A stretch of 64,000 nt of DNA from Cyanidioschyzon merolae (Eukaryota), in the NCBI GenBank assembly GCA_000091205.1, contig AP006499.2. One strand, given 5' to 3'. The notes under the pieces are model-generated. The model did no database searches, was not told where the DNA came from, and saw only the letters and a list, made by a program, of their open reading frames with translations. This document shows positions 1,035-59,500 of this stretch, one piece after another. How positions within the stretch are numbered: position 1 is the first letter of the stretch; each line of letters starts with the position of its first letter. The position numbers and the translations under genes are program-made.

Positions 1035-1187
1035 TCAGCATTCTTTCGGATCCATTCCGAACGTTTGCGATGCAGCAGTTTGTCGCCGTATTCCGAGCAG
1101 TTACCGCAGGGCTGAACCCCAGGGATGCACAGATCGAGGGATACTCCCTTGCAAATCATTCAATCCACAGACGCATCCGTCTCGGGG

Positions 1188-2084: not shown

Positions 2085-3954
2085 GTTTGGAGTACGAACC
2101 CGTCGTTGCTGGCCACTGATGCAGCCGATGAGCGCAAGTCGCCGAGACTATCCACGGTGTCCAGTAATGTGCGTGTTTATACATTTTTTTCTTGATCGCC
2201 TTTCGAGGCAGCGCATACGACGCGCTCGCCCCGTTCATGCCAGCGGTGACGCACGCTACGCTGGAAGCGATCGCTGCGATGACTACATTCCAAGTCCGAG
2301 ACCCTTTTCCACGCATACCGAAGAGACAGTAAACTTTAGCAGCGTATTGTGTGAGATGTGTCATGCAGCTGCCGAATGCCATTCCGTGAATGGCCTCAAA
2401 TGGCGGAGGATTTGTTATTCGAACGGAATCGATTGTTTCACGCGAGATGTTCGGTGAGCTTTCAGCACGGTTTTTGTGGATCGAGTTGCGAACGGCCGTT
2501 GCCAAGTATTATCGTCCGTGAATCCAGCGCAATGAATCGCTTCGTCAAAGCGTTGATTGAACCTGAAAGACCGAAACCCTGCAAGAATACCGTGTACGCA
2601 TATACTATAAATAGCGATAGAGGAAGAACGGAGGCTCGTACGTATGCATCAGATAAAGGTATCCGTTAGTTTACAAAAACCTATTTGATTGCGCCGCAGA
2701 TCTGCTTTACTCCGGTGATGGCACGAGTGCCAGCGGCGAACTGGTCAAAGCAGTTGCCCCGAACAGGCGGCCGAGAACTCTCCAACTGCGTATGAATCGA
2801 CAAGTCCCTAATGCTCCATTTCAGAACCTCGAGGCTGTATGCCTGGGAAACCTTCGAAAGAATCTCAGAGCTGGAACAGATGGCAACGTTTCTTGTTTAA
2901 TTGTTATCGGACACGACAAAGGCGGTCACCAGAAGCGTACAACTCGGAGTTGGTTCATCCCCGGTGCAGTGTATAGCAGGAGATCGACATCACGATGCAA
3001 CGCTTTGTATAGATCGTGGATGAATTACGTGCTGGACATTAATTCCTTACTGAACATTGTAAGAGAGACCGCATTCCTCCCTCAGGTCAGTCATACAACA
3101 GTGCTCAGATGGTTGCGGAATAACGGAATAAACATGTATGTGCAGTCCACGCAAAGAACTGATGTTCCTTAAGTGTGCTTGCAGTCAATGGTAGAAAACG
3201 ACCAATAGATCACGCTCTAAAAAGCAAAAGTGACGCTGATAGCCGCCGCGGGCGTCTCTGCTTCTCAATAGCTTGAGCGTGTTGACCAAAAAACATGGGG
3301 ATGCAGTCGCCAAGGAGAGTGCTAGTTCATGCACTGCCGTCTTGTACCGAAATAGCAACGACAGAGTTCCTAGAACGTCGGGATCCGTACGAAGCACTGG
3401 AACCTCGAGTTGCTTTTTTAAGGTGATAAGACTTCCTCTTGACGAAACGGTCAGAGCGTGTACGGGTATTCGCGGAGCAGGGAGCACGATGTATGCACTA
3501 CCGAACTTTAAGAGAACGAGGACACTATCTGTTCTAGCTGGAGTGGATTCTTTTCGCGGCCTCAGTTCCGCTAGTAGACAAGGTTCATACAATAGCTCCA
3601 AACACTGTATCGAATCATTGAAGACTTTACCCTGACGTCTGGCGACGTCCGCCCATTGGACAAAGTGGCATTTTCCAATTTCCCTAGCGGTCGGGCTTTC
3701 GCCGATTTTATCGGGGCAGAGCTGATTTTCATTCCTACGTGCATTCCGTGGTTCAGCCACATCGAAGGAGTGTTTTTACCCTGAAACGTCATGATAGTTT
3801 CAAGTGCGAATCCCTGAAGCGTTCAGCACATGGTGACACACCGGGTACATTTTATCTGTCTTGCGCAAATCCTTCTCCCTCTGAGAAAGTCCTCACCAAG
3901 GGGCATCAAGAATTGCGTTCATCTAAAGAAATAAACCATCCAACGGATGAGCTG

Positions 3955-4345
3955 AAGTGTGCACTTCAGAAGGTCGAGATGCAACGAAGGCAGCGGAGCG
4001 CTCCGGCGATCGAAAAGCACAGAGCGCCGCTAGAGCGCTAAATGCCACAGAGGGCGCGATTTCAAGGACTTCTGCTACTGATGCGTTCCATCGTCGTCAA
4101 TAAACGCGTGGAGTTCGTGAACCGAGACTCCAACGCTGCCATCCATATCAGAAGATATGCAGTGCTGAGGACGAGACCCAAGGAACTGACGAGAGCCAAC
4201 TTTATGGGGCAACCTCTCAGTGTCAAAGTGTACAAGGGCAAGCTGAACCCCCACAGCAGGGGGCCGGTCAAAAACGCCTGGGAAGCGTCTGCACGTGGGT
4301 ATTCATTTACTCTGTATGGCCGCGAAACGTTTCCGCTTCCTTGAC
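3955..4345 (+). mobile_element. TnpB/Fanzor-like transposon relic, locus A (3'-terminal fragment)
   Basis: Translation 'VEFVNRDSNAAIHIRRYAVLRTRPKELTRANFMGQPL' is a degenerate RuvC-III motif. Nucleotide homology to loci B and C runs from ~3955 ('gtgtgcacttcagaaggtcgag') through the shared non-coding tail 'ggccggtcaaaaacgcctgggaagcgtctgcacgtggg'. It sits in an AT-richer gene-free stretch (2100-4500). Confidence 0.45.
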
Positions 4346-8397: not shown

Positions 8398-8575
8398 ATA
8401 TGCCTGTGATACCTCTGATGCTACTGCCTCTGATGCTATTGCTGATGCTGGTGCCTCTGATACCTCTGATGCTGGTGCCTCTGGTGCATCTGGCGCTGAT
8501 GCCTCTGATGCTGGTGCCTCTGATGCCTCTGACGCTGCTGCCTCTGATCCTAGTGCTGATACTAGTGCTGATGCT
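8398..8575. repeat. Triplet-phased 6/15-bp microsatellite-like array (GATGCT/GGTGCC/TCT units)
   Basis: Visible imperfect reiteration 'gatgctggtgcctct' x ~12. Translates as D/A/S/G/T-rich low complexity on + and L/M/P-rich on another frame. No flanking coding context. Confidence 0.8.
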
Positions 8576-9394: not shown

Positions 9395-9880
9395 CCGGTT
9401 TACAGCAACTCGGAATGAGCGTACAAGGCGTGTGCACCTCGTTTCGCTACGATACTTATAGATGAGTTCCGAACATCGTATACACACCACGAACTGGGGT
9501 GTACACTTCAGAAGGTCGAGCTAGGAAAGTGCCAGCGGAGCCCTGAGGATATAAAAAGCACGGACCGCTGACAGAAGCGCAACTGGAAAGGAGAGCGAAA
9601 GTTCGTGGACTACTTGCATTAGTGAGTACAACCAGTGACGGCAAGAAACGTATGGAGTTTGTGAATCGTGACTTTAACGCCGCTATCAATATCAGGAGGT
9701 GTGCGGTGCTGGAGACGAGACCTCCAGAGTTGACACGAGAGAACTTTATTGGACAACCTCTCAAGTCGAATTATATGAGACAAGATTGGAAGAAGTAGTA
9801 GGTGGCCAGTCGAGAAAAACTGGGAGGCGTCTGCACGTCAGTGGGAGACGTTTCGTATAGGGCGCTGGTCGCCACTACTG
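9395..9880 (+). mobile_element. TnpB/Fanzor-like transposon relic, locus B (3'-terminal ~480 bp)
   Basis: 'MEFVNRDFNAAINIRRCAVLETRPPELTRENFIGQPL' is the RuvC-III D-x-NAAINI-R signature. It is ~80% nt identical to the minus strand of 46418..46900 (locus C), including a near-identical ~60-nt block ('cgatacttatagatgagttccgaacatcgtatacacaccacgaactggggtgtacacttcaga') and the post-stop tail 'taggtggccagtcgagaaaaactgggaggcgtctgcacgtcagtgggagacgtttcgtatagggcgc..gccactac'. Confidence 0.55.
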
Positions 9881-16585: not shown

Positions 16586-16820
16586 GAACAACGTGCTCGA
16601 CCCGCACTGTTTCTAACCTGCCGTGTGTGCAGATGATGCGCTTCCGGGGACACAGCAAACGTCGAAGAACACGATCCGCACTGTTTCTAACCTGCCGTGT
16701 GTGCAGATGATGCGCTTCCGGGGACACAGCAAACGTCGAAGAACACGATCCACACTGTTTCTAACCTGCCGTGTGTGCAGATGATGCGCTTCCGGGGACA
16801 CAGCAAACGTCGAAGAACGT
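16586..16820. repeat. 74-bp minisatellite, ~3 copies
   Basis: The unit 'cactgtttctaacctgccgtgtgtgcagatgatgcgcttccggggacacagcaaacgtcgaagaacacgatccg' starts at 16605, 16679 and 16753. It is intergenic, downstream of the Brix gene. Confidence 0.9.
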
Positions 16821-20671: not shown

Positions 20672-21142
20672 TTACTCTGCGGCAGGCGGCGAGGGTACGT
20701 CTGTTCGCGCCATTTGCTCAGCGCGCGACTTGAGTCCATGGTTGAACGCTTCAAAGTCCCGCAGCAGCCGCTTTCGAAACCGACCGCTGGGAAAGACATC
20801 GGCAGTAATACCTGAGAAACTCGCGGTGTGCGTAAAGAGGCATCCGTTCGTGGTAGGCTCGATCCGGAAAGAATGCCTACCCCTAAAGACCCATCCAAAG
20901 ACTAGTTTTCGCTCCCAGGTGAGCTCGTTGCCTGTACGTAGCTGGGTCAGCTTTGAGCGAAAACGCCGCCCTCGCCAACCGCTATCGAGCTCCACAGTGA
21001 GCGTCGCACCCAACGCTAGTTCGCCTCGTATGTTCGAAAACAGGGCGTTCCACTCTGGATACCGCTCGAAGTCACACAGAATATCCCAGATAACGGAAGC
21101 CGGGGCCAAGATCTCGATAGAAGTATTGACTTGGACGGGCAT
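20672..21142 (-). CDS. SRPBCC (START/Bet v1/polyketide-cyclase-like) ligand-binding domain protein
   Basis: ATG at 21142 ('MPVQVNTSIEILAPASVIWDILCDFERYPEWNALF...'), 156 aa. The pattern 'I.A....VW..L.D.E.Y..W' is typical of polyketide_cyc2/SRPBCC. The longer upstream ORF part is (CA)n-containing low complexity and probably non-coding. Confidence 0.6.
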   Translation of the reverse strand: MPVQVNTSIEILAPASVIWDILCDFERYPEWNALFSNIRGELALGATLTVELDSGWRGRRFRSKLTQLRTGNELTWERKLVFGWVFRGRHSFRIEPTTNGCLFTHTASFSGITADVFPSGRFRKRLLRDFEAFNHGLKSRAEQMARTDVPSPPAAE

Positions 21143-21871
21143 TACCGAGCAGCAACACACACACACAGTGCAGGGTCTGCTGCAGTTTCCGCTTCGTTTC
21201 GCCAGAAACGGTGCACTGGGAAGGTGCCAGCGACGCACCGAGGCTACGTGTCGTAGTTCGACTACAAGCACGCCGCCACCACTACCTACGACTGTAGCTG
21301 CGACGAGCCAAAGCCAAAGTCGCCCCTGAAACGGGAAACACGAACGTCTCCAGTTTCGCTCAAACAAAGTGCTTCGGTTATATCGTCGAGAACAAGAGAG
21401 AGCCCGTCGCTGGCGCAAACCCGTTCGGGAGACATTAACTGGTACAACACGTGTGGAAACCGGCGCGTTGCACACACACACACACGGCGTCTCCTGTTCG
21501 AACGCTAGAGCCGTCGAGCTGAAACCGCTCCAACCCACACTGGAGCGCTGCACCTGGACACCGCGGACAGCGGCGGCTCGCGATCTGCACGTGCGCCTCC
21601 CGAGCCTGGAGCATTGCCTGTGCTGATTCGCGAGCCGCTCGCTTTCGAATGTCATCGCGACTTGTGCGCTGGTACAGCCGAACATGCATTGGTAGATCAT
21701 GGTGTTGTTACATCGAGTTTGATCACAAAGGAACAGGCCCATTGAGATAACAGGGGTATCCATATTAAAGTTTGAGCGGTTTTCCGACTACCATTGAAGC
21801 CAGCCCTTGGAAGATTTGTCTGCGGCAGCTCCCTTTTCGTCTCGCTTGTCTGCAGCTTTGGATACGCGAGT

Positions 21872-23005
21872 CTATCCGAATTCCGCGTGGTAATTTGTCA
21901 GCATTCGAGCCATGTTATGGGCTACGTTATCGTCGGGATTTCGCAGTTTCCGGCCGACGCTCGTGCATTTGATCCATGCGCGATCGTTGCGGTCTATATT
22001 TCGCTTGCCATCTCTATGGACTCTGTAAACAGCCTCGGTGCACGCTTCGCAGCGGTGACTCTTGATTGTGGTGAGGAGTTCGCGGATGTAGACGACACGA
22101 GCTTCCCGAAACGCAGCGCTACAGCGCGTGAACGCGTGGTTTATCGCTCCGTACATGCCCTTGACGGGTACAGAGCGCTCCGCTGGATACCCGGCTCCGA
22201 TTCCGCGCCCGGTATCGTACGCTGCGATTATCGACGTCCATCGGGCGATCGCTCGGCGAGCACTCTATCGGCTACAGGTGCGAGCGCACGCTGTTCCATT
22301 CGATAGAGGATCTGTTGAACGCGACCTTGATCATGATGAAACAAGTACTGGATGGGGAATCCTGTCTCGTGATCAAGTCGGGACATTTAGATACGTGTAT
22401 GCTCTCTTCGTCCAAATATGTTTGGGCATTGTCCAACCGAAGCGATCGCTGCGTTGACCCAAGCCCATGTGCAAAATCCTTTTCTATGCAAGTAGAAGAA
22501 GAGATTGGAGCCCATAGAACCAAATCCTGTGAGAGGTATCCTGTCACTGTCGAATGGAGTATCGTCTATTGTCACGAAGAGAAGGATTTATTTTTGAAAC
22601 GTAATGGAAAATTTGACGTGGCAAGTTCAGTAAACTTGCTGCATGAGCACGTGATCAAGTCGTCAAAGCACGACATCGAGGACGCTTCCTTGCCAATCCA
22701 GAGGCGTGAGTCGCTGCGCTCACGAGTTACCTTGAAACCGAAAGATCGAAAACTTGAAGGATGCGAATTTTGGGCGTGCTCCATGTAAGAAAAGGAGAAG
22801 AACGGATGCTTTTGCGCAAGCATTGGATATCGATATCGGTTATTATGTGAGCATTTGTTCGAGGGCCCTGCGAAGAATCTTGACTCCGGTCACGCAACGA
22901 ATTCCAGCAGCATAGAGTCGAAAGCGCGACTCCGAAACCGCGGCTGGGGAACCGAAAAGCTACATATAAATCCATAAGCCGTTTTGACTGCACTTTGAAT
23001 CTCAA
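21872..23005 (-). pseudogene. Divergent TnpB-like (IS605 OrfB-like) relic, locus D
   Basis: ORF 21872..22156 has 'TTIKSHRCEACTEAV...RNDRAWIKCTSVGRKLRNPDDNVAHNMARML'. This matches a CxxC ... W-x-C-x-x-G ... D-x-N-x-A-x-N-x-AR arrangement, i.e. a TnpB zinc ribbon followed by RuvC-III. Further minus-strand ORF fragments in other frames (22272..23005) include 'IITDIDI' (RuvC-I-like) and 'WAWVNAAIASVG'. It lies in an AT-richer gene-free 3-kb divergent intergenic region and carries frameshifts. Confidence 0.35.
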
Positions 23006-24208
23006 GGTTATGCATCTGTCGAAAATCTCGAAAGTAGATCGGGAACCAGGAGCGGAGCCAGCGCTTCAGTGTCCGATTTCAATCGGAGTTCAGCATAGGC
23101 CTCGATGCTGTGCGCACATGCACGAGAATCCGTTTCGTCTCGAAGAACTTCGAGCTTCAAAGATGCGAGCTCAGCAGTTTTGCCACGATGCGTCCGTCCC
23201 ACGATGACGAAACGCAGGCATGATCGTCTGTTACCGCATCGCCGACAAGTGTTTTACGGCATCTCGATTGCATGCATTGCAGAGAGAGTCTGCTGGAATC
23301 GTTCCATGCAAAGCAGTAAACAAGCGAGCGTGAAGATCCATGCAGGCATTCGCATGCGGCGGCTGTCGTATGCCACTGATTTCCGTATCATCGCCGTGCC
23401 ACGATGCTATGCGTTGTCGTATGCATGACCCTCGCCATGCATTCGATACGCTATAAGTTGGTACCCGAACAGACGTCTGCATGCATGCTCGCATAGCGTC
23501 AGAATCATCATGCCTTTCTTTTGGAGTGACCAAAAATCCCGCGCTGTGAGCCCCGGGACGCACGCTTTCTGCAATGCACACCTCTCGCCAGCCATCAAGC
23601 GCTCCGGTTCAGCGACCGAGTGCGTGACCCGCACACGACGCCGACTTTTATCCTCACAAGGCCTGCTGCTGCACGCAGAACCTGGGCACAGAACGGGTGC
23701 AGCGCCCTGATCAACAACATGAACATTTCCCCAGCAGTATCTGCTGATACCTGGGCAATTCCGGCGGAAGTACAAAGCGCGAGACCATGCACTCGAAGCA
23801 GATACGGTGCACATTGCACAGACGATCGTGCACGAATTAACAGACATTTCTGGGGGAGCACCATAGGCGTCGTTCGAGCGACCACATTGCACAATAAACA
23901 CCCCAGTCTGATAACAGCTCACTCGAGCCATTATCCCGCGTCATGACGAGCGCTCCCCACGATTCACGGAAAGTTGACCCTGGCCAATACCATTGAGCGT
24001 AAGCGCCTGGGTCGTACTGAATCGATGAATCAAATCGGACACCCAGGAATGCACGATTCCAGAAGCGATTGCGCGGGTGCGTGCAGTGGCGCGCCAACGA
24101 CCTCGACTAGAACTTTGGAACGCGTTTTTGCCTATGGTGCTTGCTGCGTGAGTGAAAGCGCATAGAGCGTGCAGAAGCGTTTGCCTGGCGCGTAACAGTT
24201 GTCGCTCT

Positions 24209-25315
24209 ATGCCGACGACCCGTGAAGCACACGACGGCAGTTCCGGTTGCACGGAACAGGCTAGTCAGCGCGTAAAACGCTTAAGAGCCGCACTTCGCGA
24301 GCACTCGACGGCAATTGATGCAGTGAAGGACACTGTTGATGCACAGAAACTGCAGGAGTTTCTCGATCGGAATGATGAGCTTTCAGTGGACGTCGAGGAT
24401 GCGGTGGCGCAAGGTCTTCTGTCTGAAGCGTACCTCAAAATCACGCTACTGGAGCGAGCGTTGGTCGCAAAAGTGAAGACTGGGTTGAGGGTGCTCGATT
24501 CGGACGCTTTTCTTGAGCGTCTGCGAACAAAGTGGTCAGTTTCTCGGCAGCACGGCGTGCCGACTCGAGACACTTACGCTTCCGGAGTGACACTCGCGGA
24601 AAGCATAACCACAGTGCCCGAAACTAGCGAACCCGAGCGCCCGTCAGAACAGGCAGCTGCGAACCTCCGTGACGCCAGCACCGGTGACCTCGTTGTCGAT
24701 TTGGACGCGCTCGGCAAGCGATTCTATCGGTTTTTTCGAACCGCGCCTGCGCCAACTTTCATGTTTGGACTGGTAAACCTCTCAACCGAGACGGCGTCGA
24801 ATGTTTCAAGTGTTGAACAAACACCTGTTGTACGCGAACGCGCGGCCCGTGAGCGAACCGTTGTTGCTGCCACCGAACGCGCCGAACAGGTCTCGCTCAA
24901 TGACGTCCAGGAGCAGGTTCGTACGGACGTTGCAGTGAAGCAGATGTTCGATTTCTTAGAAGAACATGGCCCTATTGAGTTGTACGACCTTGTACTCGAT
25001 ACGAGCAGCTTCGGACGAACGATTGAGAACCTGTTTCACCTTTCGTTTTTGATTCGTGATGGAAGGGTAGAGTTGTGGCGTGAACATGATCAGTATATGG
25101 TGAGGCCACTGCATCGCCACGGCCAAAGTCTGGCTCGCACCGGACAGGAACCTGCGCCTGGTACAGCGGGAGCGGAGCTAGTCGCAGGCAAGCAAGCCAT
25201 CTTCCGATTCGATTGGCAAGATTGGAGTGAACTTTGCATGCAACGACATGGGAAACGAACGCTCCAACCGGGAACGAGCCCGAACCCGAGTCACAGTAGC
25301 ATCGCTGCATTGTAA
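24209..25315 (+). CDS. NSE4: Nse4/EID3-family kleisin subunit of the Smc5/6 complex
   Basis: C-terminal 'KQMFDFLEEHGPIELYDLVLDTSSFGRTIENLFHLSFLIRDGRVEL' matches the Nse4_C signature ('..NP.SF.QTVENLFY.SFL.K.G...'). The first in-frame ATG is at 24209 (the ORF listing starts at a GTG). Confidence 0.75.
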   Translation: MPTTREAHDGSSGCTEQASQRVKRLRAALREHSTAIDAVKDTVDAQKLQEFLDRNDELSVDVEDAVAQGLLSEAYLKITLLERALVAKVKTGLRVLDSDAFLERLRTKWSVSRQHGVPTRDTYASGVTLAESITTVPETSEPERPSEQAAANLRDASTGDLVVDLDALGKRFYRFFRTAPAPTFMFGLVNLSTETASNVSSVEQTPVVRERAARERTVVAATERAEQVSLNDVQEQVRTDVAVKQMFDFLEEHGPIELYDLVLDTSSFGRTIENLFHLSFLIRDGRVELWREHDQYMVRPLHRHGQSLARTGQEPAPGTAGAELVAGKQAIFRFDWQDWSELCMQRHGKRTLQPGTSPNPSHSSIAAL

Positions 25316-27087: not shown

Positions 27088-27476
27088 GGGACCAATGGGT
27101 ACCAATGGGTACCAATACGGAGGCGATATACAGCCCAGAGGGCACGGTCAAGTCAAACCGATCGGTCGCGTACGATGATATCAAGCATACTCGGTGAATG
27201 GGTACCAATATGGAGGCGAGATACAGCCCAGAGGGCACGGTCAAGTCAAACCGATCGGTCGCGTACGATGATATCAAGCATACTCGGTGAATGGGTACCA
27301 ATATGGAGGCGAGATACAGCCCAGAGGGCACGGTCAAGTCAAACCGATCGGTTGCGTGCGATGATATCAAGCATACTCGGTGAATGGGTACCAATATGGA
27401 GGCGAGATACAGCCCAGAGGGCACGGTCAAGTCAAACCGATCGGTCGCGTACGATGCTATCAAGCATACTGCCTGG
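27088..27476. repeat. 93-bp minisatellite, ~4 copies
   Basis: The unit 'gggtaccaatatggaggcgagatacagcccagagggcacggtcaagtcaaaccgatcggtcgcgtacgatgatatcaagcatactcggtgaat' sits at 27107, 27200, 27293 and 27386, preceded by a 'gggaccaatgggtaccaatgggtaccaat' stutter. The 339-aa ORF 26860..27879 is a repeat translation. Confidence 0.9.
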
Positions 27477-28065
27477 CCAGCTCACGCTGTCGCTCTATGA
27501 CGCGTCGCCACCAGCGCATTTCTGCCGCGGCACTCTTGCAAGGCGGAAAGACGCGAAGCTCATCAACGATGCAAATACAGTTACCCTCATGCCAGTTCAC
27601 CCGACCAGAGCAATACAGTACGACTCCAGTTTGCAGAGCACTCCGAGTCCCTTGCTTCCAGTCACCCGCGCCTTGGAGCATACCTTCGGGAGAGTTCCAG
27701 CACTGAGCCTTCGCGACTCCCGTTCCGTCGTCGATAGCGAGACGTATACAGGCACGCGAAAACTTTATTTCCCTAACGATTCCGAGCAGACACACACGCG
27801 TGATATGCAGAAGCGTCAGCGTGAGTTTCCAGGCTGGTACCCACTCATCGGTGCCGTCGTCGCTGGCTTCCGGTGTTAGTCGACTGTCCCAGCGCGGGAT
27901 TGGTAGTATAGCCAAGTCGCGTACCGGCTCCAGCGCGGGAGCATCCTTTGCAGGCTGTAAAGGCTGCCGGACAGCTTTATAAAGTTGGACAGCGAATACT
28001 TCAACCGCGCTGCTTAAAACCGGCAAGTTCCTGTGGTATCCCCAGTTGAGCCGGCGCTCAAACAT
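27460..28065 (-). CDS. RPA32/Stn1-family single OB-fold protein (no C-terminal winged helix)
   Basis: 'ITRVCLLGIVREIKFSRACIRLAIDDGTGVAKAQCWN...GVVLYCSGRVNWHEGNCICIVDELRVF' fits the RPA2/Stn1 OB pattern (V.ivG.V...-.y.lDDGTG.i.v..W ... G.yV.V.G.l...n.....i.v..i). The first ATG is at 28065. Confidence 0.5.
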   Translation of the reverse strand: MFERRLNWGYHRNLPVLSSAVEVFAVQLYKAVRQPLQPAKDAPALEPVRDLAILPIPRWDSRLTPEASDDGTDEWVPAWKLTLTLLHITRVCLLGIVREIKFSRACIRLAIDDGTGVAKAQCWNSPEGMLQGAGDWKQGTRSALQTGVVLYCSGRVNWHEGNCICIVDELRVFPPCKSAAAEMRWWRRVIERQRELARQYA

Positions 28066-29105
28066 AACGGCTACAACAGCCGCTATCCCGGTTCGAATCA
28101 GAACGCACCTAGTGAACGTCAAGCTCACATAGGCACTTGCGTTTCCGGGTCAAAGTTGAGTTTAGAGTCGAGCGCTCCGTAAGACGACGGCTTTTCGTCG
28201 CCGTGTGCGTGGCGACTCGGCGTAACGATGTCGTGCGCTGTACGAAAAGCACGAGCAGCAGCAGCAGCGCTCACGCCCGACACTCTCAGCGGTGGTAAGG
28301 CGAAGCGGTTCTGTTTATGCGTTGCTTCCGCACCGGCGTTGCAGATGACGTTGCGTACGCTCACTGCAGGCACTCGGCACACGATAGACAGTACGACTTG
28401 AACAGTATCTCCCATACGGAGCACTTGTGGTACCGGGTGGAGCTTGAAAGTAGAGTGGAAAATGATAGACGTTCTCCAATATGCCGGTTTCCTATCCTGC
28501 ACAACCGGAGATCTCTGGTCAGCGTAAACCCACTGTCGATCGAAGTACTCCATTCGAGGGCCGCATCTTGGCGGATGGACGCACCAGATGTTTTGGCATC
28601 CGCCAGATACACCACTGCAGCAAACGAACAGCGTGTAGGGACATGACTGCATCGGCAAGCGCTTTCATGTTCCATGGAATTCAGTCCAGAGATCCTCTAC
28701 GCACCAACATCCTTACCAGTCCAACGAGCTTTGCAGCGCAGAGCATACCGCAGGTGCGTGATCGGCAGTCGTTTGCGCCCCAGCAAATATCCAACGGCAG
28801 CTGGACGGCTCGACGGTGCCTCTGGCGGTCGCAAATCGACGCCTGGGCAAAGCGACACAAACCCCATCACACAACCGTATAGGGCGTCAAAAAGCTACAC
28901 AAAAAATGCATCTGCGAGCAGGTCCAGCAGCGCAACGTCACCGCGGATGGCAAGCGGCGATCAGCGCATGAGGCAGGCGCGCTACGCACACCCACTGTCG
29001 CGTGACCTGCTCGAGAAGCGCAACGCAGTGGAGACGCTGCACGCGGAGCACGGACCCGTCGATCCCTCAGATCCGTGGAACGCTGCGCCTAGGGAGCTTC
29101 ACGCA

Positions 29106-29489
29106 GAGCCGCCACAACCTCCCGATTCTTTCTCTTCGATAGAAAGGTCATTCAGACCAGGAATCAGTAACGATGCGATGGATATCGCATATGCGTGATC
29201 AGAGCCGCCACAACCTCCCGATTCTTTCTCTTCGATAGAAAGGTCATTCAGACCAGGAATCAGTAACGATGCGATGGATATCGCATATGCGTGATCAGAG
29301 CCGCCACAACCTCCCGATTCTTTCTCTTCGATAGAAAGGTCATTCAGACCAGGAATCAGTAACGATGCGATGGATATCGCATATGCGTGATCAGAGCCGC
29401 CACAACCTCCCGATTCTTTCTCTTCGATAGAAAGGTCATTCAGACCAGGAATCAGTAACGATGCGATGGATATCGCATATGCGTGATCC
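29106..29489. repeat. 96-bp minisatellite, 4 copies, containing the perfect palindrome CGCATATGCG
   Basis: The unit 'gagccgccacaacctcccgattctttctcttcgatagaaaggtcattcagaccaggaatcagtaacgatgcgatggatatcgcatatgcgtgatca' sits at 29106, 29202, 29298 and 29394. It ends ~15 bp before the first ATG of the Ctf18-like ORF. Confidence 0.9.
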
Positions 29490-29503
29490 GCGTTGCAATA
29501 CGT

Positions 29504-31894
29504 ATGCGAGCGGCAGCTCCCGAGGCAGTGCGCTGCGAATCGCAAGCCGCGCGCTGCCCTGCAGCGATGCGCGCGAAAAATCGCCTCCAGGAACGGCGCG
29601 CGCCGCGGCGTCGATCGCGCATCGCATTGGGTGCTGCTTGCGGCACGAGACGGTGCTTTCGGCTGCTGCAAGTGTCGTACGTACCTCATATGGATGTGAG
29701 CGGGAACGGGTTATTGATGCCTCGTAACCTGCAAGTTCGTCGTAGCGACGGTAGGGTGTTGTCTGTACGTATCCGCGAGGCATCATTGGGTGAAGAAGCG
29801 AACCTGCACTTCGGTAAGCTAGAGGCTGCAGTCGCTTGCCCGGTGGCAGGTGTTCATGAGGCGTCCAGCTGGACACGTGAGCCAGTATGCAGAACAAATC
29901 GGCAGTCGAGCAACAATGTCGACCACGAGGTGTCACAATCTGGGCTGAGCCTGGCTGATAAAGCTGCTACAGTCAACGGGATGCTCTGGTCAGACGCGCA
30001 TGCTCCCAAAGCGTATACCGAGTTGCTCGGCGATGATCGAATGCACCGGGAGTTGTTGCGCTGGCTGGTCAGCTGGTCGCAGTATCGGGACGTACGCAGC
30101 ACCTCGGGAGCATCCTTTCGGAACGGGACCGGTGCTTGTCGTCGGTTCACCGCGCCGTTGACACCCTTAGCGGTGTTGGCCGGTCCGCCCGCATCCTGCA
30201 AAACGGCGTGTGTGCGTGTTCTCGCTGAGCGGGCTGGTCTGGAAATGTGGGAGCCCCATATGCTGTTTAGAGACGGGTTGAACTGTGCAGAAAATCGATT
30301 TGCAGAGGTACTCGGGAGTGCTTCGCTACGAACAGGGCGACCAAGGCTGGTAGTTGTCGACGAGGGCGTTTTACCCGCAGAAGCCTTTGCCTCTCTGAAA
30401 CGAAGCGCCGGGAACGCTTCCGCCAACACCATCCACTGGTCGGATGTTCTTGTTCGCGTAGCGCTCACGTTGAAAAGCGTACCTGTTCTCTTCGTTCTCG
30501 ACGATGCTCACTGCCGTGAGGCCCGCATCCTCCGTGCGCAGGGAGCTGTCATTTTCACTTGCAGCCGCCCCGGTTTGCAGCCGCTCAAGAGACGTCTAGA
30601 GCAGGTTACGCGTCACTGTGGCTTGAAATTCGCCGAATCCGCCTTTCTTGAGCATCTTGCACTGGCACTTAACTGCGATATTCGAGCATGCCTGAACCAA
30701 CTCCAGCTTATTGGTGCCTGTCAATGGTCTGATGGCCTGTGGTCCACCATTGGCCTGCGTGATGCACCGGGGCCTCTGCGAGAGCAATGCTCGCAAATAT
30801 TCCGGGTGAGCGCGCGTCCAGCGTCCTATATGGTTCAGACGGGAGCCGGTGGCGTTCGTAACCGAGCGACCGGAACTGCGTCCGACGATTCTGAACGGGA
30901 TATTCCGCACCGACCAGCGTTCGGGGCATCTCAGAGCCCAGATCTCTGGAAACGACAGCATTTTCTCAGCGGTGAAATTCGCGATTATCTCGACATGTGT
31001 TTCGAGAACTATCTGGCGGTGGTGCCCTTCGATCCGCTGATGCGTCGCTGCAGCGCTGCAGTCGACTGGCACAGTTGTATCGATTCGATGATCCACAACG
31101 AGCTGGTGGACTCGATGGTGCTGGAAACGCTCGGCCTTGCTGCCCTGCAATCGTACCGTTACCATTGCGGGCGATCGACTGCACCCGTACCACACTCGCT
31201 CAAACTGGCCCGTTTCGGGTGCCTCGACGCCAACTCCCCGATGCATACGCGAAACCGCGACATCATAGAGCGATATCGACAGGCGCTTATCGAAGATTCA
31301 AGCAACGCTTCTGTACGGCAAGCATATGCGCTATCTCTGCGGCGCGAGGGCGTTCTCGTTTTCATACCGTTGCTTGTTGTCACGATGCAAGCGATCGTGG
31401 AAGCGACAGTCGCGGAAAAAGGCGCACGGCGCGCGGAGCTGCTCCGGCACCTAGGAAAGCAACTGTCGAGCTACGCGCTACGTTGGGCGGCGGATGACGA
31501 TTCGCAGGCCAACATTGCACCAGAAGCGCCATCAGGTGCTCGCCGGTGGAATGCTCTTCCGCTTGAACCAGCGATCGCTGACCTATGCATCATGCAAAGC
31601 GCTTCGTATCCGGAATGCAAACGGGAAGGCGTGCGAGCGCTTCAACGACAGTTCGGCGTGCTACTCAGGAACTGCGCTGGGCAACGGGTGCGGTCCGCTC
31701 GGAACGTCGCACTGCGCGGAAACGCACTCCACCACCACGCTGCGCATCCTCTGAGTTTACCGGTGAAACGCGACGCTAGGATATCGGAGCTTCGATCGCA
31801 TTCAGATGGCATCCAGTGCATCGTCCGTTACCAGTATCGCGAAGGGCACACGAACGCGGTCTTGCGTCCGTGTCTGATCGAGGATTTGCTATAA
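29504..31894 (+). CDS. CTF18: Ctf18/Chl12-like RFC-family AAA+ clamp-loader subunit
   Basis: 'LWSDAHAPKAYTELLGDDRMHRELLRWLVSW' parallels the Ctf18/RFC1 'LWVDKY(A/K)P..F.EL..D......L.WL..W' box. The P-loop 'LAGPPASCKTACVRVLAE' follows. The start is uncertain: in-frame ATGs at 29504, 29567 and 29690, and the first ~60 codons are very GC-rich and may be 5' UTR. Confidence 0.65.
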   Translation: MRAAAPEAVRCESQAARCPAAMRAKNRLQERRAPRRRSRIALGAACGTRRCFRLLQVSYVPHMDVSGNGLLMPRNLQVRRSDGRVLSVRIREASLGEEANLHFGKLEAAVACPVAGVHEASSWTREPVCRTNRQSSNNVDHEVSQSGLSLADKAATVNGMLWSDAHAPKAYTELLGDDRMHRELLRWLVSWSQYRDVRSTSGASFRNGTGACRRFTAPLTPLAVLAGPPASCKTACVRVLAERAGLEMWEPHMLFRDGLNCAENRFAEVLGSASLRTGRPRLVVVDEGVLPAEAFASLKRSAGNASANTIHWSDVLVRVALTLKSVPVLFVLDDAHCREARILRAQGAVIFTCSRPGLQPLKRRLEQVTRHCGLKFAESAFLEHLALALNCDIRACLNQLQLIGACQWSDGLWSTIGLRDAPGPLREQCSQIFRVSARPASYMVQTGAGGVRNRATGTASDDSERDIPHRPAFGASQSPDLWKRQHFLSGEIRDYLDMCFENYLAVVPFDPLMRRCSAAVDWHSCIDSMIHNELVDSMVLETLGLAALQSYRYHCGRSTAPVPHSLKLARFGCLDANSPMHTRNRDIIERYRQALIEDSSNASVRQAYALSLRREGVLVFIPLLVVTMQAIVEATVAEKGARRAELLRHLGKQLSSYALRWAADDDSQANIAPEAPSGARRWNALPLEPAIADLCIMQSASYPECKREGVRALQRQFGVLLRNCAGQRVRSARNVALRGNALHHHAAHPLSLPVKRDARISELRSHSDGIQCIVRYQYREGHTNAVLRPCLIEDLL

Positions 31895-33868: not shown

Positions 33869-34651
33869 GGAAAGCTCAACAGCGACAGCGTAATCAATAG
33901 CACCATCGCCATCGTCATCCGAAATCTGCCGTTCTTGTGCTGGCGGTACGCGCTGCCGCGTTCGGGTTCCCGCGGCTCTGACGGCAAGCGTTCCCTCCGG
34001 TCGTGTTGCTTGCATAGGTTCGAGCACCCGTCAAACGTATGCGTACAGTTCGGGAACTGAAACGAATGTTCGTGCTTCAACTTCATCAGACGTTGCGCTG
34101 CTTCCTGGATGGGCTTGTCCCGAAATTTCTCGTCGTTTTTGAGTTCCCACGTGCTGATGCGCAGCGATGCATTCTCGGAGGCTGAGCAGGTCAATGGACC
34201 AGTTCTTCAGGAGCATGGGCGTCACACGCGGGGACTGATGAAACGGGAACTCTTTATCGCATGGAGGGTCCTCTGGTTTCTAATACGCCGGGCGTCGCGA
34301 CAGCATTGGCAGAAGCGTTGCGAATCCTGCGGACTCGAAAGTCTGAATGAGGCCGTGCGAGCGCTGATCTGTGCTGGCTCCTGTCATACAGCGGCAAAGC
34401 GTCGAAGGCGCAACGCTGAAATGACGACCAGGTATCGTCCAACTAGGTGCGAGTTCGTTAGCATTGCTGCTCCACTTCAATTGTCGAATCTATAAATCTA
34501 AAGAAAAGCTCGAAAAACATCGTAAGGAAAGAACAGGATGAGCACCGATGTGTTCCATGATCATGTGGTACGACTTGTATACCTGATTAGAGACGACTGT
34601 CCGACATGCGATCCAGCAGCGTCTGTTTTTGGGCGCCGCGCAGACGCCGCT

Positions 34652-34900
34652 GACGAGCAAGCGCTCCAGGCGCTAACGAGTAATCCGTCATTTCGTGCGC
34701 GTTCATGCCTCAAACCAGCGTTACCGATCTTCAGTCCCAGTGTACATTTGCTTTTGCAAACTCGCAGTTACGACGAGCAAGCGCTCCAGGCGCTAACGAG
34801 TAATCCGTCATTTCGTGCGCGTTCATGCCTCAAACCAGCGTTACCGATCTTCAGTCCCAGTGTACATTTGCTTTTGCAAACTCGCAGTTACGACGAGCCT
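34652..34900. repeat. 120-bp minisatellite, ~2.1 copies
   Basis: The unit 'gacgagcaagcgctccaggcgctaacgagtaatccgtcatttcgtgcgcgttcatgcctcaaaccagcgttaccgatcttcagtcccagtgtacatttgcttttgcaaactcgcagttac' sits at 34652 and 34772 with a partial third copy. Confidence 0.9.
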
Positions 34901-37569
34901 ACTGCGAAAGCGATGTGGCCTCTGGTTGCTCGCCCTGCATGGAAACGCACCTTCGATTTTCTCGCCATGTGACGTTCGATCAGCTCACCACACACCGTAT
35001 CGCGCATCCGACTACGCTCTATAGTCTTCTTCTGTACTGGTTTCAGCGCACGCCCGTACTCGTGGTTCGAGTACGTCGTACTGAATTCATGGATGGGAAT
35101 CGTGCAGCACCGAAACCTGCACGCGTTGGACGCGCTCGTCGAAATGGGCAGCGGCGCAGTATTTGCGAGTTTCAGCCTGTCCCGTGCCAAGGGCTGCTGC
35201 AAAATGACGCAAATTTTTGAGCTACTCCTTTTCCAGCTCGTTGAATAGCAAGGCGAATGTCCGCCTCGTGCCTCCCTACATCCGAAACATTACGAGGCTC
35301 TGGCGCGGTCGGATATACTCTTGCCAAAAGTCGTCGAAACGAACAATTTGGACGCTCATTTACTCACTGAATGCAGCGTACCATACCAATCGTTGCTTCT
35401 CGATACAGTGACGAGAGCGTCGAGATCGGTCCTGCCGTCGTCATGCCACTTGTTGATATGCTTCCTCACGACCACTGGGCCCGAACTTAGATAATATCGA
35501 GGCTCAGAAAAAAAGTCAGGCCGTGGTGCATCTTCAGTACCGCCCGTCGGTTGTTCCACAAAGGTTTGACCGAGGAATTCTGGGGGCATGTGAGCGCCTG
35601 GTAGCACCTCGCCCCGAACTCCGACAATCATCTCACTGACGTTGTACGTCAAGGCAAGTGGGGCCGAACAAGACCTTCCCGAAAAAGAAGCTGCAGAGTC
35701 CTTCATGGCTTCCCGCATCTCACAGTTTTGTAAGATTCTTCCCGTAGATGCGTTTTCGTACGGAGCTCTTGCCAATGATTTCACGCAGATCCTTTCACAC
35801 AGGCCGTTTTGCGTTCACGTACTTTCTCGTCCTCTTTCTGAGCGGATCTTTCTCTTCTTTCTTCTGTGGTTTCTTCACTGTCTCGTTTGCATGATGGAAG
35901 GGCACGGGTGCCGTCGCTTAGCTCTATGTCCGTTTCTCCCTTGGGTCCTAGACGCACTGGATGGATGTTGCGACGGATCTTGGCTTTCTCTATCTTTGTA
36001 TCCACTATACTTCGAGCATCTTTTCGCCAACAACCCCGATGCAAGCACGTCTGCGAACCGAAATGCGCCTTTCCATTCTCTTCTGCTATCGAGCACATAC
36101 GCAACGCCGTTGCTCACGGCTAGTGAGGCTAATGAACGGCTTTCCAGAGAAAAATTCGTCTACGAACGGTGTCACGGATGCGAATGAATCGTCTATGGAT
36201 GCGAAAGCTTACAAACGGCGTTTGACAGCATAGAAGCTGCTTCCGATTTGATACAACCAAGGAGAATAGGCTGCCACAAAGTGCAGATTAACGCCATCAC
36301 CGGCTGTGCGCTCTCTGGCCAGTTTTCGGGATGCAAAGCGACGTAGTCTACGAGCCGGACAGAAGACCACCGGAAGAAGAACCCGCAATGCGCTCCGATG
36401 AAGGAAGAGGCGTCAAACGATCCCGTCTGTTTGGGGATGATTCGGTGAGCAAACGACAGCATCGCCGCTCGGGCTGATGTCGCTTTCATTCCCGCTTGTC
36501 TTTTCTTTACGAAGAGCGGTGTGCCGCTACTCTAGGACCCCAACACAGGTCTACCATTTCTCCGGAATGAAGTCAGGTCGACTAAAACGAACATCCGTGC
36601 CACGTGTCGTCAGCGTTCGTGTTCCAGTACGAATTCGCTGGAGTGCGCTTCGTCAGCGTGCGATGCGCTCCCGAAGAAGCGCGCGTCGTTCTTCGCCTAT
36701 CTGCATCGCTTCACCACTGTTCGTTATCAAGGGTATGGAAACGTTGCATGCATGCTGTGGGTTTTTGGTAGTATTTCATAGAGAACGGATGCAGTGGCAT
36801 TGCCTGGCGAGGAAACTGTTGTATATATTGATTCTGATGAGTTCGAGTTCGATTGCTTGACGCTGAGCATATCGCCTAAGCGAACGTTCCTTCATCAACT
36901 TGCTGAAAGTTCAGTAGCTGATTCGTAAGAGGATGACCTGTTTCCGCAATCAAGCAGCAACAGCATAAAATCTTTCCACATTCTCACTCCATTCCGAAGG
37001 ATACAGTTATTTTGTTGCATACCTGCGAAGAAATAAACCAGGACAAAAAGTATATTCTGGTTGAGGTATTCTGGTACCACCGATTATGAGCGTAACGGTA
37101 GCGGCAGCGCGTCCGTGGGCATCGCCGCTGTCGCTCTTCGAACCGACGCCCTTTGTGGTTCGGCACTGCCGTTCTGTCTCCGTGCAGCGACCGCACCGGC
37201 GCTACAGGCGCTATTGCTGCCGGTTTCGGCAGGCTCGGCACACGATAGGGCGTATGAAACGACCAGAATATCCGAGATGAAGTATAGGTCATGTAACCTG
37301 AGAGTAGGAGGTTGATGGCTACCTCACCGCACACTGAAAGAAAAACACACACAAAGAAAATAAGAAACGAAAAATGCGCATAATCGGAGAACGCTGGCCT
37401 ATGGAAACGTTTTGTCCATGAAAAGAAAATGTGCCGCTGTCGCTGCGATCGGGTTGAAGGGCAGCGCGCCGGCGGCGGCGGCGGCAGCGCCAGCGACCCT
37501 AGACACTAGTCATAACCTCGCCGCTGCTGACATCATTCTATTGCCGCTGCGGCCTTTCAGAGCTTTTTG

Positions 37570-48710: not shown

Positions 48711-48921
48711 GAGCTTACTTGAGGGTTGGAAAACAATTCAGCTGAAAAACTATACTTTGCTATTACTTGAACGCAAATACAACTTTTACGGTAGAACAAC
48801 ACGCAAATATTCAGGATCGCGTTTCCCTTCAACGGCGAGATACTCCTCCTGTCTCATGCCTGCCAGATATCCCAGGTGTGCGTATCGACCACGCTATATA
48901 GAACAAATAACAGAGACTAAC

Positions 48922-49572: not shown

Positions 49573-49781
49573 GATGGCGCTCCTGATGGCAATGCGCGCC
49601 TGTATACAACAGGGGCGCGAAACTGTCTCGGTTCCCATACGGGTCGTGTTTCACGTTAACGCTGCTCGACTCCTGTGTGTTTGTGTGTGCCCGACGTGAT
49701 AGTGGCCAAGCGGGAAGGCTCGCCCTTCTTTCCATTGAACCGTTATGCGTGGAATCCTCACCTGTAAAACTACCTGTTGTG

Positions 49782-56581: not shown

Positions 56582-59500
56582 ACTGCGGAGCCACAGTGCA
56601 CCAAGGAAAGTGTGGTTTTTGCAGGGGCTTTGCCAACGGGAGGCGAATTTTTCTACTGCCGGTCAAGGGTGCAGAAGAAGCACTCGGGAGATCCTGAAAG
56701 CATTCATCGAGGCTATAGCATAAAGAAAGTTGGACGAAGGAGGTGAAGTGTCTTTGTGCCCTCTGCAGCGTGACTTGTCGATGAGCAGCGGTCGACGCGT
56801 ACCGGCACGCTCGCTAGAGCGCTCTTGCAGAGCGACGTGAAAAACTTGCATTCATGAAGAAAACACCACGGGAACGTAGCGCTTAGGAATATATGCCTAA
56901 ATGCAGTTTTTGGTGCTCGTTCGTCCAGCTGTGACGGAACGCCGATGGAGTCGTAGAAAACGGGATTCGCCTGTCATAGACGTGTACCCAAGCTAGACTG
57001 AACTGGCAATGGGTCGTCTAACGCGCCTGTCAATACTGCAGTTTGGGTCTTTTTTCTACTGCCTTCAACACAATCCTCTGTGCGCTTTTTCTGTGGCTGA
57101 TCCGTGTTCCTCTATCCTATCTTGGGCTCTAAATACGCGGGTCTTTAGCTTTCCCCCAGCCCCAGTGGAAGCAGTCGTACGACGTTGAGGGAGCGTTCAA
57201 GCGCCGATTTCGGAGCTCCCAGCTCTTGTCCATGCATTTGATGCACAGGGCGAAGTTGCGGCCTATGATTCGCTTGCCATTTTCTACTTCACTGCATACA
57301 CCCTGACTGTGCACACCGCAGCAGTGACACTACTTTGGGCAGGTGTTCGCAAACTTGCACCAAATCCCTCGCCTCAAGCCCAACTCTGTGGTGCGTAAAC
57401 GCTCGCTTCACCTCTTTCTACATGCCCCTGACGAGTACGGAAGGCGCAACGCATTGCCTTCCTCCGTTTCCGCTCTCGGTGCCGGACCCTATTATCACGG
57501 GCTTCTTCTGGGCGATACCCGCGGCGAGTTCAGTGTCCACTGCATGTGCAAGCGCATGCTGTTCCATCCTACACGAGGATTTGTGGAACGGGATGTCGAT
57601 CTTGATGAATCGAGAACCGGTGACGAATTCCAGGCGGGGAAGCAGTCGAGAAATTTGGATCCGTCAATACGCATTTTTTTGCCAAGCGGTGACGCAATCT
57701 CTGCACCGGAAGCGATCGCTGCGATGACGTGAGTCCGAGTCCAGACCCTTTTCTGGACAAGCGGAAGGAACCGGAGCCTCCAACAGCATAGCTCTCGAGA
57801 AGTATCATGCTACTGTGGTATGTCGTTCGTCGCTAAACACAAAGATAGGAGGATTTGTTTTTTGTACGGATCCGATTACGAATTGAAGATAAATTTTATT
57901 TTCAGGACAATGTTACGAACAAGTCTTCAAAAGACGACGACGACGACGCCTTTTCTCTTCGTACATCGGGTGGTGCGAATTGCTGTGCCCACGAATCCCT
58001 ACGAAACATCAAGATCGAAGAAATGACGCAGACGTGATTTGATCATTCTACTCGTAAAGAACGGAGAGGAATGGATGCTTGGACGTGTGCATTGGATAAT
58101 GGTATCCGGCGTTTACGAATGCCTGGTCGAGGCCCGTACAAATCATCCTGAGTCCTGTGCCGAAACGAATTCCATCGGCTGGGCGTCGAAGAAGCCACTC
58201 CGAAAACACGACCGACATTCGTGTAACGACAGCCGGCTCCGTACGCCGTTATTCCCGCACATCGAATACTGGGGCTGCAAATCCAAAAAACAACTTTGGA
58301 AAACCTGGATAGACGGGAACAGTGTGAGCGGTTCAGTGCCCCAGTTCAATTATCACGCGGACGAGGACTGCTTCGTACCACCAATAGAAAACGCAGTATT
58401 GGGATGGAGCACTAGTATCCAGGTGTGCACCTATCATGATAGAAGCGTTTCCAGTCGGCACCATCGAGGATCCCTCACTTGCCTCACCTACCGATTATCC
58501 TGGAAAAAACGGCCTGCAAATGATGAATGTATCACGAGCACTGCATTCCAGGGTGGCATTTGTCTTGCAAACAAAACGAAATGTGCGCTTTATTTCCCCC
58601 ACATGTAACCCAGAAACACCTAAATGCCTCGACTGGATCGGTCGCGCTGGTGGCAGTGCACAAAGCGTCCAAGTGTGTCGTGCGGTCGCGAGTGCCACTG
58701 CGGAGTGACGGCCTCTGCATGTGCTGGAGTCACGATATGCATACAACCATGCCATGAAGTATGTGCCGATGTCAACGCACACTCTGTAAGGTCGAAATGC
58801 TCTTCGCACGAAGAAACAGGCGACAGCCTCTCCGGTGTCATATCCGGTAGAACGTGGCTGTCACGATGGATACCAGCGGCCGACTTTGATACACTCTTGC
58901 TGGGACTCTGGTGCGCGTGCTCACGGAACTCATGCGAGGGCAGCGGAATTTACAGCTGCATGTAAAGGATTGCGGGTTCTGATGCCGGGGGCTGTTGTCC
59001 CGATTCACTCTGTCAAACGCTTACCACGGAATGAACTGGTTCGATGTATGGTGCATTGAGTCTGCGCCATCCCTTGCATGTCCACGGGCATGGTTTGTCG
59101 TGAACGTATATCGCGTGAGCCCATAACCGTGGCGGGTATCGAGTCTCGCTCGTGTCTGAGTACAGCTGAAAAAATTCTTATCAGAAGGTTTGGAGAATGC
59201 CTGATAGGGAAATAAGACTCGCGTCTGCACATCAGGCGAATAAGCTGATTCGGTCTTCCTGTTGATACCGCAGTCAGCTAGCTGTCAAGGCACACAAAAA
59301 GATTCACGATATGCTCGTCTAGCGAAACGGTTTCACACGCATACCAGGCGAACTAGCTGGCTCGTTCTAGCTATCGAAGCTGCAGCGAACGAATCAGCGA
59401 TTCCCCGTAAGAAGGCTCATGGTATGCCAAGGTCGGTAAGAGGCCATACATTCGCCAACCAGGAGAGCCAGCTTGTTCGTTATTCCCGGCGACGCTGCAG

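Follow-up and report, generated by a model that had tools for sequence, protein, structure and literature searches.

What kind of element lies behind a short reading frame that resembles the end of a TnpB nuclease, placed between two ordinary genes of a eukaryotic genome? The question is raised by a stretch of 64,000 nucleotides (hereafter the window), in which a first-pass annotation had pointed out a TnpB-like open reading frame (ORF) with neighbouring minus-strand fragments, called locus D. It was proposed there as a relic of IS605 or IS607 type, separate from three other TnpB-like loci of the window (A, B and C). Locus D is one copy of a dispersed family of about 1.38 kb, and the TnpB/Fanzor nature of the ORF became apparent only after this repeat family had been rebuilt. 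The element is very probably a dead, non-autonomous transposon of the Tc1/mariner/IS630 type with a tail derived from Fanzor1, a eukaryotic TnpB, in a red alga of the Cyanidioschyzon merolae type.

Read by itself, the locus gives little. The ORF and the fragments that contain 'IITDIDI' (ORF 22727-23005, minus strand) and 'WAWVNAAIASVG' (ORF 22387-22575, minus strand) are present exactly as described. A Pfam search of the six frames of 21764-24151 and of the individual ORFs gave no match to TnpB, WRKY, transposase or recombinase families. This means that locus D alone lies below the sensitivity of Pfam and is undecidable when read in isolation. A six-frame concatenate of D had no match among 5.8 billion protein clusters, yet the same database answered a query with the consensus of the family.

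The family was recognised by comparing the window with itself. In blastn, 21964-22937 aligns with 57233-58205 at 65% identity and, over part of its length, with 2264-2467; the orientation of the three stretches is the same. A 20-mer common to the three window copies served as the query for a metagenome scan, which returned 74 loci; about 55 of these share the composition of the window and are either the same loci at about 99% identity or further paralogous copies. With nhmmer the repeat is a discrete unit of about 1.3 kb, and 18 distinct paralogous copies were left once near-identical sequences had been removed (at least 18 in metagenome contigs of the same organism). Each is 71-76% identical to the consensus of 1,377 nt that was built from these 18 copies at about 75% identity. 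The rest of the intergenic region around D (23098-24208 and 21143-21710) is single-copy. The 20-mer itself, GAAGCGATCGCTGCGWTGAC, was considered as a conserved functional site and rejected. Copies found without seeding on it have 2-6 mismatches, and most of its apparent invariance is therefore due to ascertainment.

The termini of the consensus are inverted repeats of 25 nt, with CACCCRTGTCAGAWTAAAATGGAAC at both ends. A search of the window for terminal inverted repeats (TIRs) with up to three mismatches found none; those of the window are too decayed for direct search and were therefore located by aligning the consensus with the window. Of the 33 family flanks that were scored, 10-11 have TA, where about two would be expected.

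Translation of the consensus yields two truncated proteins, both on the minus strand. The first frame reads MYSLDIQSAAIRAYGF...GVAPSTLCRW...LFVAIDETAFDSSMIPLTGYAPRGSR...VIAAIASSG...CFIMDNIAFHKS and matches the DDE_3 profile (PF13358) over positions 3-116 of 146, with 36.8 bits and E = 4e-9 (cut-off 28.6), as well as HTH_Tnp_Tc3_2, the latter weakly (17.8 bits). When the consensus transposase is compared with the window by tblastn, it aligns to 23008-22577 at 58% identity, and also to 22581-22426 and 22469-22254. The start codon is kept in D (ATG at 23013-23015) and an ORF at 22890-23015 (minus strand) reads MHNLEIQSAVKTAYGFICSF..., with further reading broken by frameshifts and stops. The two neighbouring fragments, which had been taken for additional pieces of TnpB, turn out to be parts of this transposase. 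'IITDIDI' lies within its helix-turn-helix (HTH) region, and 'WAWVNAAIASVG' is the decayed form of '...TRT.VIAAIASSG' in the DDE core. In the complete catalytic triad of Tc1/mariner/IS630 transposases, the third residue (D or E) stands about 34 residues past the second D. This third residue is absent here: the DDE_3 match breaks off before it, and the region that corresponds to ...YSPDYNPIE in an intact relative, P0008, is replaced by Fanzor sequence. Since no complete triad exists, the D family is non-autonomous.

The second frame of the consensus reads ...LYRMEQHALARAADRVLAEGIAQKKPVIVGYGTGRG...PVKGMYRAMKQAF...VVDIWEHLTTVKCHRCEG...RLCMKCVDNSRKQRNRDLNAAINILRLL...ERPAYL and matches the Cas12f1-like TNB domain (PF07282, formerly OrfB_Zn_ribbon) with 29.5 bits and E = 9e-7 (cut-off 26.3). 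Both this and the DDE_3 match exceed the curated cut-offs, so that the Pfam comparison which is negative in all six frames of the window copy is positive for the family. A hidden Markov model (HMM) was also made from the C-terminal 150-200 or so residues of 19 published Fanzor1 proteins, none of them from the D family (supplement of PMC3627910). With this model the consensus scores 76 bits (E = 2e-23), and the stop-free segment 22264-21875 (minus strand) of D itself scores 18.8 bits (E = 1.1e-4 when all 1,844 six-frame fragments are searched); when the whole window was dinucleotide-shuffled 20 times, the top scores were 4.8-11.4 bits. Among all six-frame fragments, D ranks alongside loci A, B and C. 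Another match to the model, at 24280-24110 (minus strand, 10.7 bits), was rejected as it lies inside the shuffle noise. Two database proteins, P0006 and P0003, find the actual sequence of D by tblastn with E = 2e-14 and 8e-12, and the Fanzor part of the consensus aligns to the window at 54-83% identity. The reading of the ORF as a decayed zinc ribbon and RuvC-III segment of the TnpB type is thus supported.

The details of the motifs had been only partly recognised. The consensus has EHLTTVKCHRC...CMKC, of which the window copy keeps the TT and two of the four cysteines: CHRC has become SHRC, and CMKC has become WIKC. The proposed zinc ribbon stands, and its 'WxC' is the decayed CMKC, but the 'CEAC' that had been included in it is an accidental, shifted CxxC, the ancestral CHRC being located three residues earlier. 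In RuvC-III, RNRDLNAAINI of the consensus reads RNPDDNVAHNM in D, with the aspartate kept and the arginine lost. A premature stop (21872-21874) ends the ORF about 35 codons short of the consensus stop. In TnpB and Fanzor nucleases, the aspartate of RuvC-I is situated 125-275 residues upstream. RuvC-I and the N-terminal half with the WED/REC domains are absent from the D family, where Fanzor homology begins only about 40 residues before the G-motif and is preceded by the transposase. The best blastp match of the Fanzor part among the 19 published Fanzor1 sequences is CRe-4 (31% identity, E = 2e-13), and identity to other Fanzor1 proteins is 25-32%. Judged by these sequence comparisons, the Fanzor part belongs to the Fanzor1 clade and not to the Fanzor2/IS607 group.

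These matches bear on two other explanations of the ORF. It might be a chance reading frame or the relic of an unrelated zinc finger, for example a WRKY-type DNA-binding domain, given that long ORFs occur on both strands, that the six-frame translation of D is unmatched in the cluster database, and that the best phmmer match in the PDB is the DNA-binding domain of WRKY33 (E = 0.002, 21.6 bits). However, the WRKY33 match is unsupported by Pfam, and the consensus restores CHRC...CMKC...RNRDLNAAINI rather than WRKYGQK...HxH. With significant matches from both the Fanzor profile and real Fanzor proteins, such an origin is extremely improbable. On the plus strand, a stop-free stretch of 207 codons (22165-22785) runs opposite the transposase/Fanzor relic, in antisense. 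Neither the databases nor Pfam gave a match for it, and it probably arose by chance from the composition.

The second explanation is the IS605 or IS607 assignment itself, that is, a prokaryote-style IS200/IS605 or IS607 relic in which TnpB accompanies a Y1 or serine-recombinase TnpA. The CxxC...C...D-N-A-N pattern of the ORF agrees with it, and the C-terminal PF07282 module is common to TnpB and Fanzor. Nevertheless, no remnant of a Y1 transposase or serine recombinase was found either in the consensus or in any of the six frames of 21764-24151, and the other two thirds of the element are occupied by a DDE_3 transposase relic, with 25-bp TIRs and TA flanks at the ends. In addition, the best protein matches are eukaryotic Fanzor1 proteins, and the Fanzor2/IS607 types are not the closest. 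The prokaryote-style assignment is therefore hardly credible for D.

The transposase and Fanzor parts meet at one junction. In the alignment of the consensus, P0008 covers minus-strand nucleotides 84-854 in one frame, while P0003 and P0006 cover nucleotides 785-1261 in another. The short overlap past the junction is matched much better by the Fanzor frame (14 of 23 residues), and the junction was for this reason placed directly after ...FHKS, near 22306. The features of locus D and the other copies in the window are collected in Table 1.

Table 1. Coordinates of the locus D element, its parts and the related copies in the 64-kb window
Feature	Position	Strand	Remarks
Locus D element	21711-23095	(-) coding	25-bp inverted ends, TA on both sides
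TA flank, gene-3' side, putative target-site duplication	21709..21710		read from the sequence and the 18-copy alignment
Terminal inverted repeat, decayed	21711..21735		CATCGAGTTTGATCACAAAGGAAC in D, consensus CACCCRTGTCAGAWTAAAATGGAAC; from the 18-copy consensus mapped to the window
Fanzor1 C-terminal relic (eukaryotic TnpB)	21771..22306	(-)	G-motif, E-x-x-T-T, C4 zinc ribbon (TNB), RuvC-III 'RD..NAA.NI'
ORF of the first-pass annotation, inside the Fanzor relic	21872..22156	(-)	94 codons, peptide exactly as quoted there
Junction	22300..22312	(-)	end of the transposase homology (...MDNIAFHKS) and beginning of the Fanzor homology ((L)YRMEQHALARAAD...); one shift of reading frame
Transposase relic, N-terminal ~235 codons, Tc1/mariner/IS630-type DDE	22307..23015	(-)	HTH regions and the regions of the first two catalytic Asp
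Second terminal inverted repeat, decayed	23071..23095		…GTGTCCGATTTCAATCGGAGTTCAGCA
TA flank, putative target-site duplication	23096..23097		read from the sequence
Second full-length window copy (D')	56985..58363	(-)	65% identical to D, 76% to the consensus
Third window copy (D'')	2203..2919	(-)	transposase half only, ends about at the junction
Family fragment, 200 nt	34336..34536	(-)	transposase HTH region; nhmmer E=1e-14

Intact relatives of both parts exist. A protein database search with the stitched consensus gave eight matches. P0006 (712 residues), P0002 (551 residues) and P0003 are Fanzor1 proteins that have the N-terminal half and RuvC-I, and their identity with the Fanzor part of the consensus is 45-47%; the RuvC-I motif GLDPGRVN is found in P0006 and P0002, and not in the D family. 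P0008 is an intact transposase of 307 residues with HTH_Tnp_Tc3_2 and DDE_3 domains in Pfam. It begins with MYSLD, as the consensus does, and runs beyond ...DNVAFHKT into ...YSPDYNPIE..., the segment that is missing from the D family. The contig that encodes it (3,273 bp, ENA ERZ1426603) carries P0008 at 110-1033 and then, on the same strand, a 636-residue PF07282 protein at 1126-3036. This is a composite layout from which a single internal deletion would yield the D family.

An origin by one deletion in such a composite, followed by amplification in trans, is likely. The ancestral element of about 3 kb would have encoded a transposase and then a Fanzor1 protein in the same direction. One internal deletion would have joined the first 235 or so transposase codons directly, and out of frame, to the last 180 or so codons of Fanzor1. 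The deleted copy would then have been multiplied in trans by a transposase recognising its ends, inserting presumably at TA and giving rise to dozens of copies. These copies would since have drifted by about 25% from the consensus, with D decaying neutrally. Taken as a whole, the account of D as a dead copy with a transposase front and a Fanzor1 tail, derived from a composite by deletion and amplified in trans, is strongly favoured.

Several observations weigh against this account. Firstly, Pfam is blank on the window copy, which leaves the consensus, together with custom and pairwise comparisons, as the basis of the identification. Secondly, TA is intact on both sides in only two of 17 copies (D and one other), and five copies have GA on one side. 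Thirdly, no parent with the TIRs of the D family was recovered, and P0008 shares only 30% identity with the consensus transposase over 250 residues. Finally, the transposase frame has a weak P0008-like 'YSP...P' within the 70 nt past the junction, which was judged to be chance because the Fanzor frame is stronger, and a one-base error of the consensus at the junction is possible, so that the fusion may originally have been in frame.

The main alternative to a deletion is a recombinant origin, by illegitimate recombination or template switching between a mariner/IS630-type element and a separate Fanzor1 element. Here too no parent has been sampled: the missing N-terminal 535 residues of Fanzor and the C-terminus of the transposase left no trace in the window or in a further 0.48 Mb of contigs that were sampled. 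Chimeric structures are frequent among Fanzor elements (Bao & Jurka, PMC3627910), and on one contig (L078) a D-lineage Fanzor adjoins a D-like TIR with no transposase detectable upstream. Against this, the contig with a transposase followed by a TNB protein on the same strand does exist, so that a single deletion suffices, and the two TIRs of the family are inverted versions of each other, which is what one parent would give. A recombinant origin is thus considered unlikely, and deletion from a composite remains the preferred explanation.

The present state of the family is one of decay. Diversity among the copies at the three codon positions is 0.26/0.28/0.28 in one part and 0.27/0.27/0.28 in the other, and it is uniform along the whole element, which is the pattern expected of neutral decay after insertion. 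The D copy is not expected to make a transposase, since the third catalytic residue is absent and there are several frameshifts. Nor should it make a nuclease, as it is without WED, REC and RuvC-I, has lost the arginine of 'RD' along with two of four zinc ligands, and contains a premature stop. There is no sign of present function for D.

Could the element nevertheless have been kept, as a functional or domesticated chimeric gene (an HTH-DD front with a RuvC-II/zinc-ribbon/RuvC-III tail) or as a regulatory element upstream of genes? All three window copies are found directly upstream of genes on the minus strand, with the same orientation, and the orthologous D locus is 99.1-99.5% identical in other metagenome samples. 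However, the unique flanking DNA is equally conserved (98.8-99.6%), and the copies are full of stops and frameshifts, with the two parts in different frames and no difference in diversity between codon positions. The probability of three matching orientations by chance is about 0.25. Retention for a function is accordingly most unlikely. As to the positions themselves, the genes immediately downstream are a COQ10-like SRPBCC ORF (55691-56581), TPI (1188-2084) and the SRPBCC ORF next to D (20672-21763), and the copy near TPI has lost its Fanzor half. The shared position and orientation may be due to chance or to a preference in insertion or retention.

The other TnpB-like loci of the window belong to an element that has already been described. 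Loci A (3949-4300, plus strand), B (9422-9857, plus strand) and C (46447-49543, minus strand) are copies of CMe-1/CMe-1A, the only Fanzor1 family listed for Cyanidioschyzon merolae, with about 150 copies of 3,169 bp and no TIRs (PMC3627910). The CMe-1 Fanzor1 consensus (C. merolae, 734 residues) aligns to locus C at 46447-48587 (minus strand) over residues 18-733, with most segments at 78-82% identity and one decayed stretch at 49%. Amino acid identity is 78-83% for locus B and 57-71% for locus A, and 57-83% is the overall range for the three loci. For the CMe-1A DNA as published, the initial 630 nt align with 48911-49543 and 50843-51473 at 80-81%, which equals the divergence reported for the family of about 150 copies (PMC3627910). 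These matches point to C. merolae, or to an alga closely related to it, as the source of the window. Locus C, with residues 18-733 and the 5' region at 48911-49543, is a nearly full-length element of about 3.1 kb; a PDB sequence search with its stitched protein gave no match. The CMe-1A 5' region (the TE-N2_CMe-like part) recurs, in copies or fragments, at 50843-51473, 37135-37308 and 28277-28529, all on the minus strand. A Rab GTPase gene (49677-50384) lies between the two copies at 48911-49543 and 50843-51473, which are separated by 1,930 nt and share 98% identity over their first 300 nt.

As had been noted, D has no nucleotide similarity to loci A, B and C in blastn, nor any similarity in tblastx, where D, D' and D'' give nothing collinear with them. 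The Fanzor part of the D family is 23% identical to CMe-1 over the shared 160 or so residues, and D has no tblastn match with CMe-1. The proposal of two separate TnpB-like lineages in one window is therefore upheld. There may even be a third. A divergent Fanzor-like relic at 34945-35511 (minus strand) is 29% identical to CMe-1 residues 464-650, scores 18 bits with the Fanzor1 profile and is not close to the D lineage. It adjoins the 200-nt fragment of the D family and two units of a 120-nt tandem repeat (34652-34891).

Locus D is situated between an SRPBCC-domain ORF (20672-21763, minus strand) and an Nse4 gene (24152-25315, plus strand), in a window with about 55% G+C, the look of an intron-poor eukaryote and ordinary housekeeping genes (TPI, LSm, a Rad50-like SMC, Nop56/58, Rab, Snf7 and ribosomal S9). 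A protein kinase-like ORF was assigned by eye only. The SRPBCC ORF has 363 codons, the first 17 of which lie inside the terminal repeat of D, and its Pfam domain begins at residue 210. The true start of this gene is probably a Met near 21142, which would make it much shorter than the ORF. The element thus explains about 1.4 kb of the 3-kb divergent intergenic region, and the SRPBCC ORF is seen to enter transposon sequence with its long 5' extension. Elsewhere in the window there are tandem repeats of 96, 93 and 74 nt, each with three to four near-identical units, and a short-period repeat rich in GAT/GCT (29104-29583, 27104-27563, 16598-16819 and 8398-8564); several of these fall within long ORFs or at their beginning.

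The intact Fanzors that are closest to the D lineage are encoded on contigs that look like giant-virus DNA. One of these contigs, L079 (1-6833), encodes a divergent RPB2 whose score against cellular Pol II is only about 400 bits over 550 residues, hardly above that against the archaeal enzymes, and many small ORFs surround it. Another, L078 (6001-8376), has a Peptidase_S74 protein of 2,625 residues, UvrD and ATG8, and the D-like TIR mentioned above, GTTCCATTTTTTCCTAACAAAGGTG, lies just past the Fanzor stop. A different arrangement is encountered in P0004, an ORF of 610 residues found on 17 contigs, where an unrelated low-complexity N-terminus is joined to only the C-terminal 200 or so residues of Fanzor. 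Such giant-virus-like contigs fit the suggestion that viruses have spread Fanzors (Bao & Jurka, PMC3627910), and they would link the relics of the alga to intact relatives in metagenomes of unverified origin.

A more speculative and improbable idea is that the 3' end of Fanzor and the adjacent transposon end were kept because this segment carries an omega RNA gene, and/or that the lineage entered the alga from a giant virus. If the former were true, short elements could be served in trans by the transposase, through their TIRs, and by the Fanzor ribonucleoprotein, for homing or retention, and the D elements would be the eukaryotic counterpart of the bacterial TnpB-dependent PATE-like elements. 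Rfam at the gathering threshold gave no RNA family in the window, and no dedicated omega RNA model or covariation test was run.

How does D compare with known systems? Internal deletions have produced many non-autonomous DNA transposons, for example Ds from Ac, defective mariners and the precursors of miniature inverted-repeat transposable elements. The D family resembles these in keeping both ends and fragments of coding sequence, in presumably being multiplied in trans, and in having one putative deletion junction common to its copies. It differs in that the deletion would span two genes, giving a transposase-Fanzor chimera. The bacterial TnpB proteins of IS200/IS605 and IS607 elements (PF07282 and PF01385) share a homologous zinc ribbon and RuvC-III segment with D, but D is without a Y1 or serine TnpA and without subterminal hairpin ends, and its host, vehicle and nearest relatives are eukaryotic or viral. 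CMe-1/CMe-1A has the same type of host genome and the same Fanzor1 C-terminal module as D. In contrast to CMe-1A, D has TIRs, TA flanks and a transposase relic; the zinc-finger linker of D is short, and the C4 cysteines that are lost in CMe-1 are present in the D family.

The closest parallel is with Fanzor1 genes captured by Mariner elements, which have TA duplications and TIRs of 24-33 bp (Bao & Jurka 2013, PMC3627910). In PUl-1, PUl-2 and PUl-4 of Pythium ultimum and PGv-1 of Phaeocystis globosa virus, as in D, a transposase and a Fanzor1 are combined in one element with TIRs and a TA duplication (putative in D), the C-terminal motif [TS][TS]-x-x-C4-...-RD is present, and there is a connection with large DNA viruses. 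The PUl proteins are about 25-32% identical to the Fanzor part of D. Those elements are 3.4-3.8 kb long, with complete genes and 1-8 copies, whereas the D family is 1.38 kb long, multi-copy and fully decayed, with only a transposase front and a Fanzor1 tail. Both Fanzor1-bearing Mariner elements and deletion-derived non-autonomous transposons are known kinds, and D is an ordinary decayed relic. To our knowledge, the D family and its chimeric truncated form are not in the paper that catalogues the Fanzors of this alga (PMC3627910). The family adds a second Fanzor1 lineage, in a mariner-type vehicle, to a red-alga genome with one listed Fanzor family that lacks recognisable ends. It also illustrates that Fanzor-bearing composites can yield amplified deletion derivatives, which resemble 'TnpB relics' if read alone.

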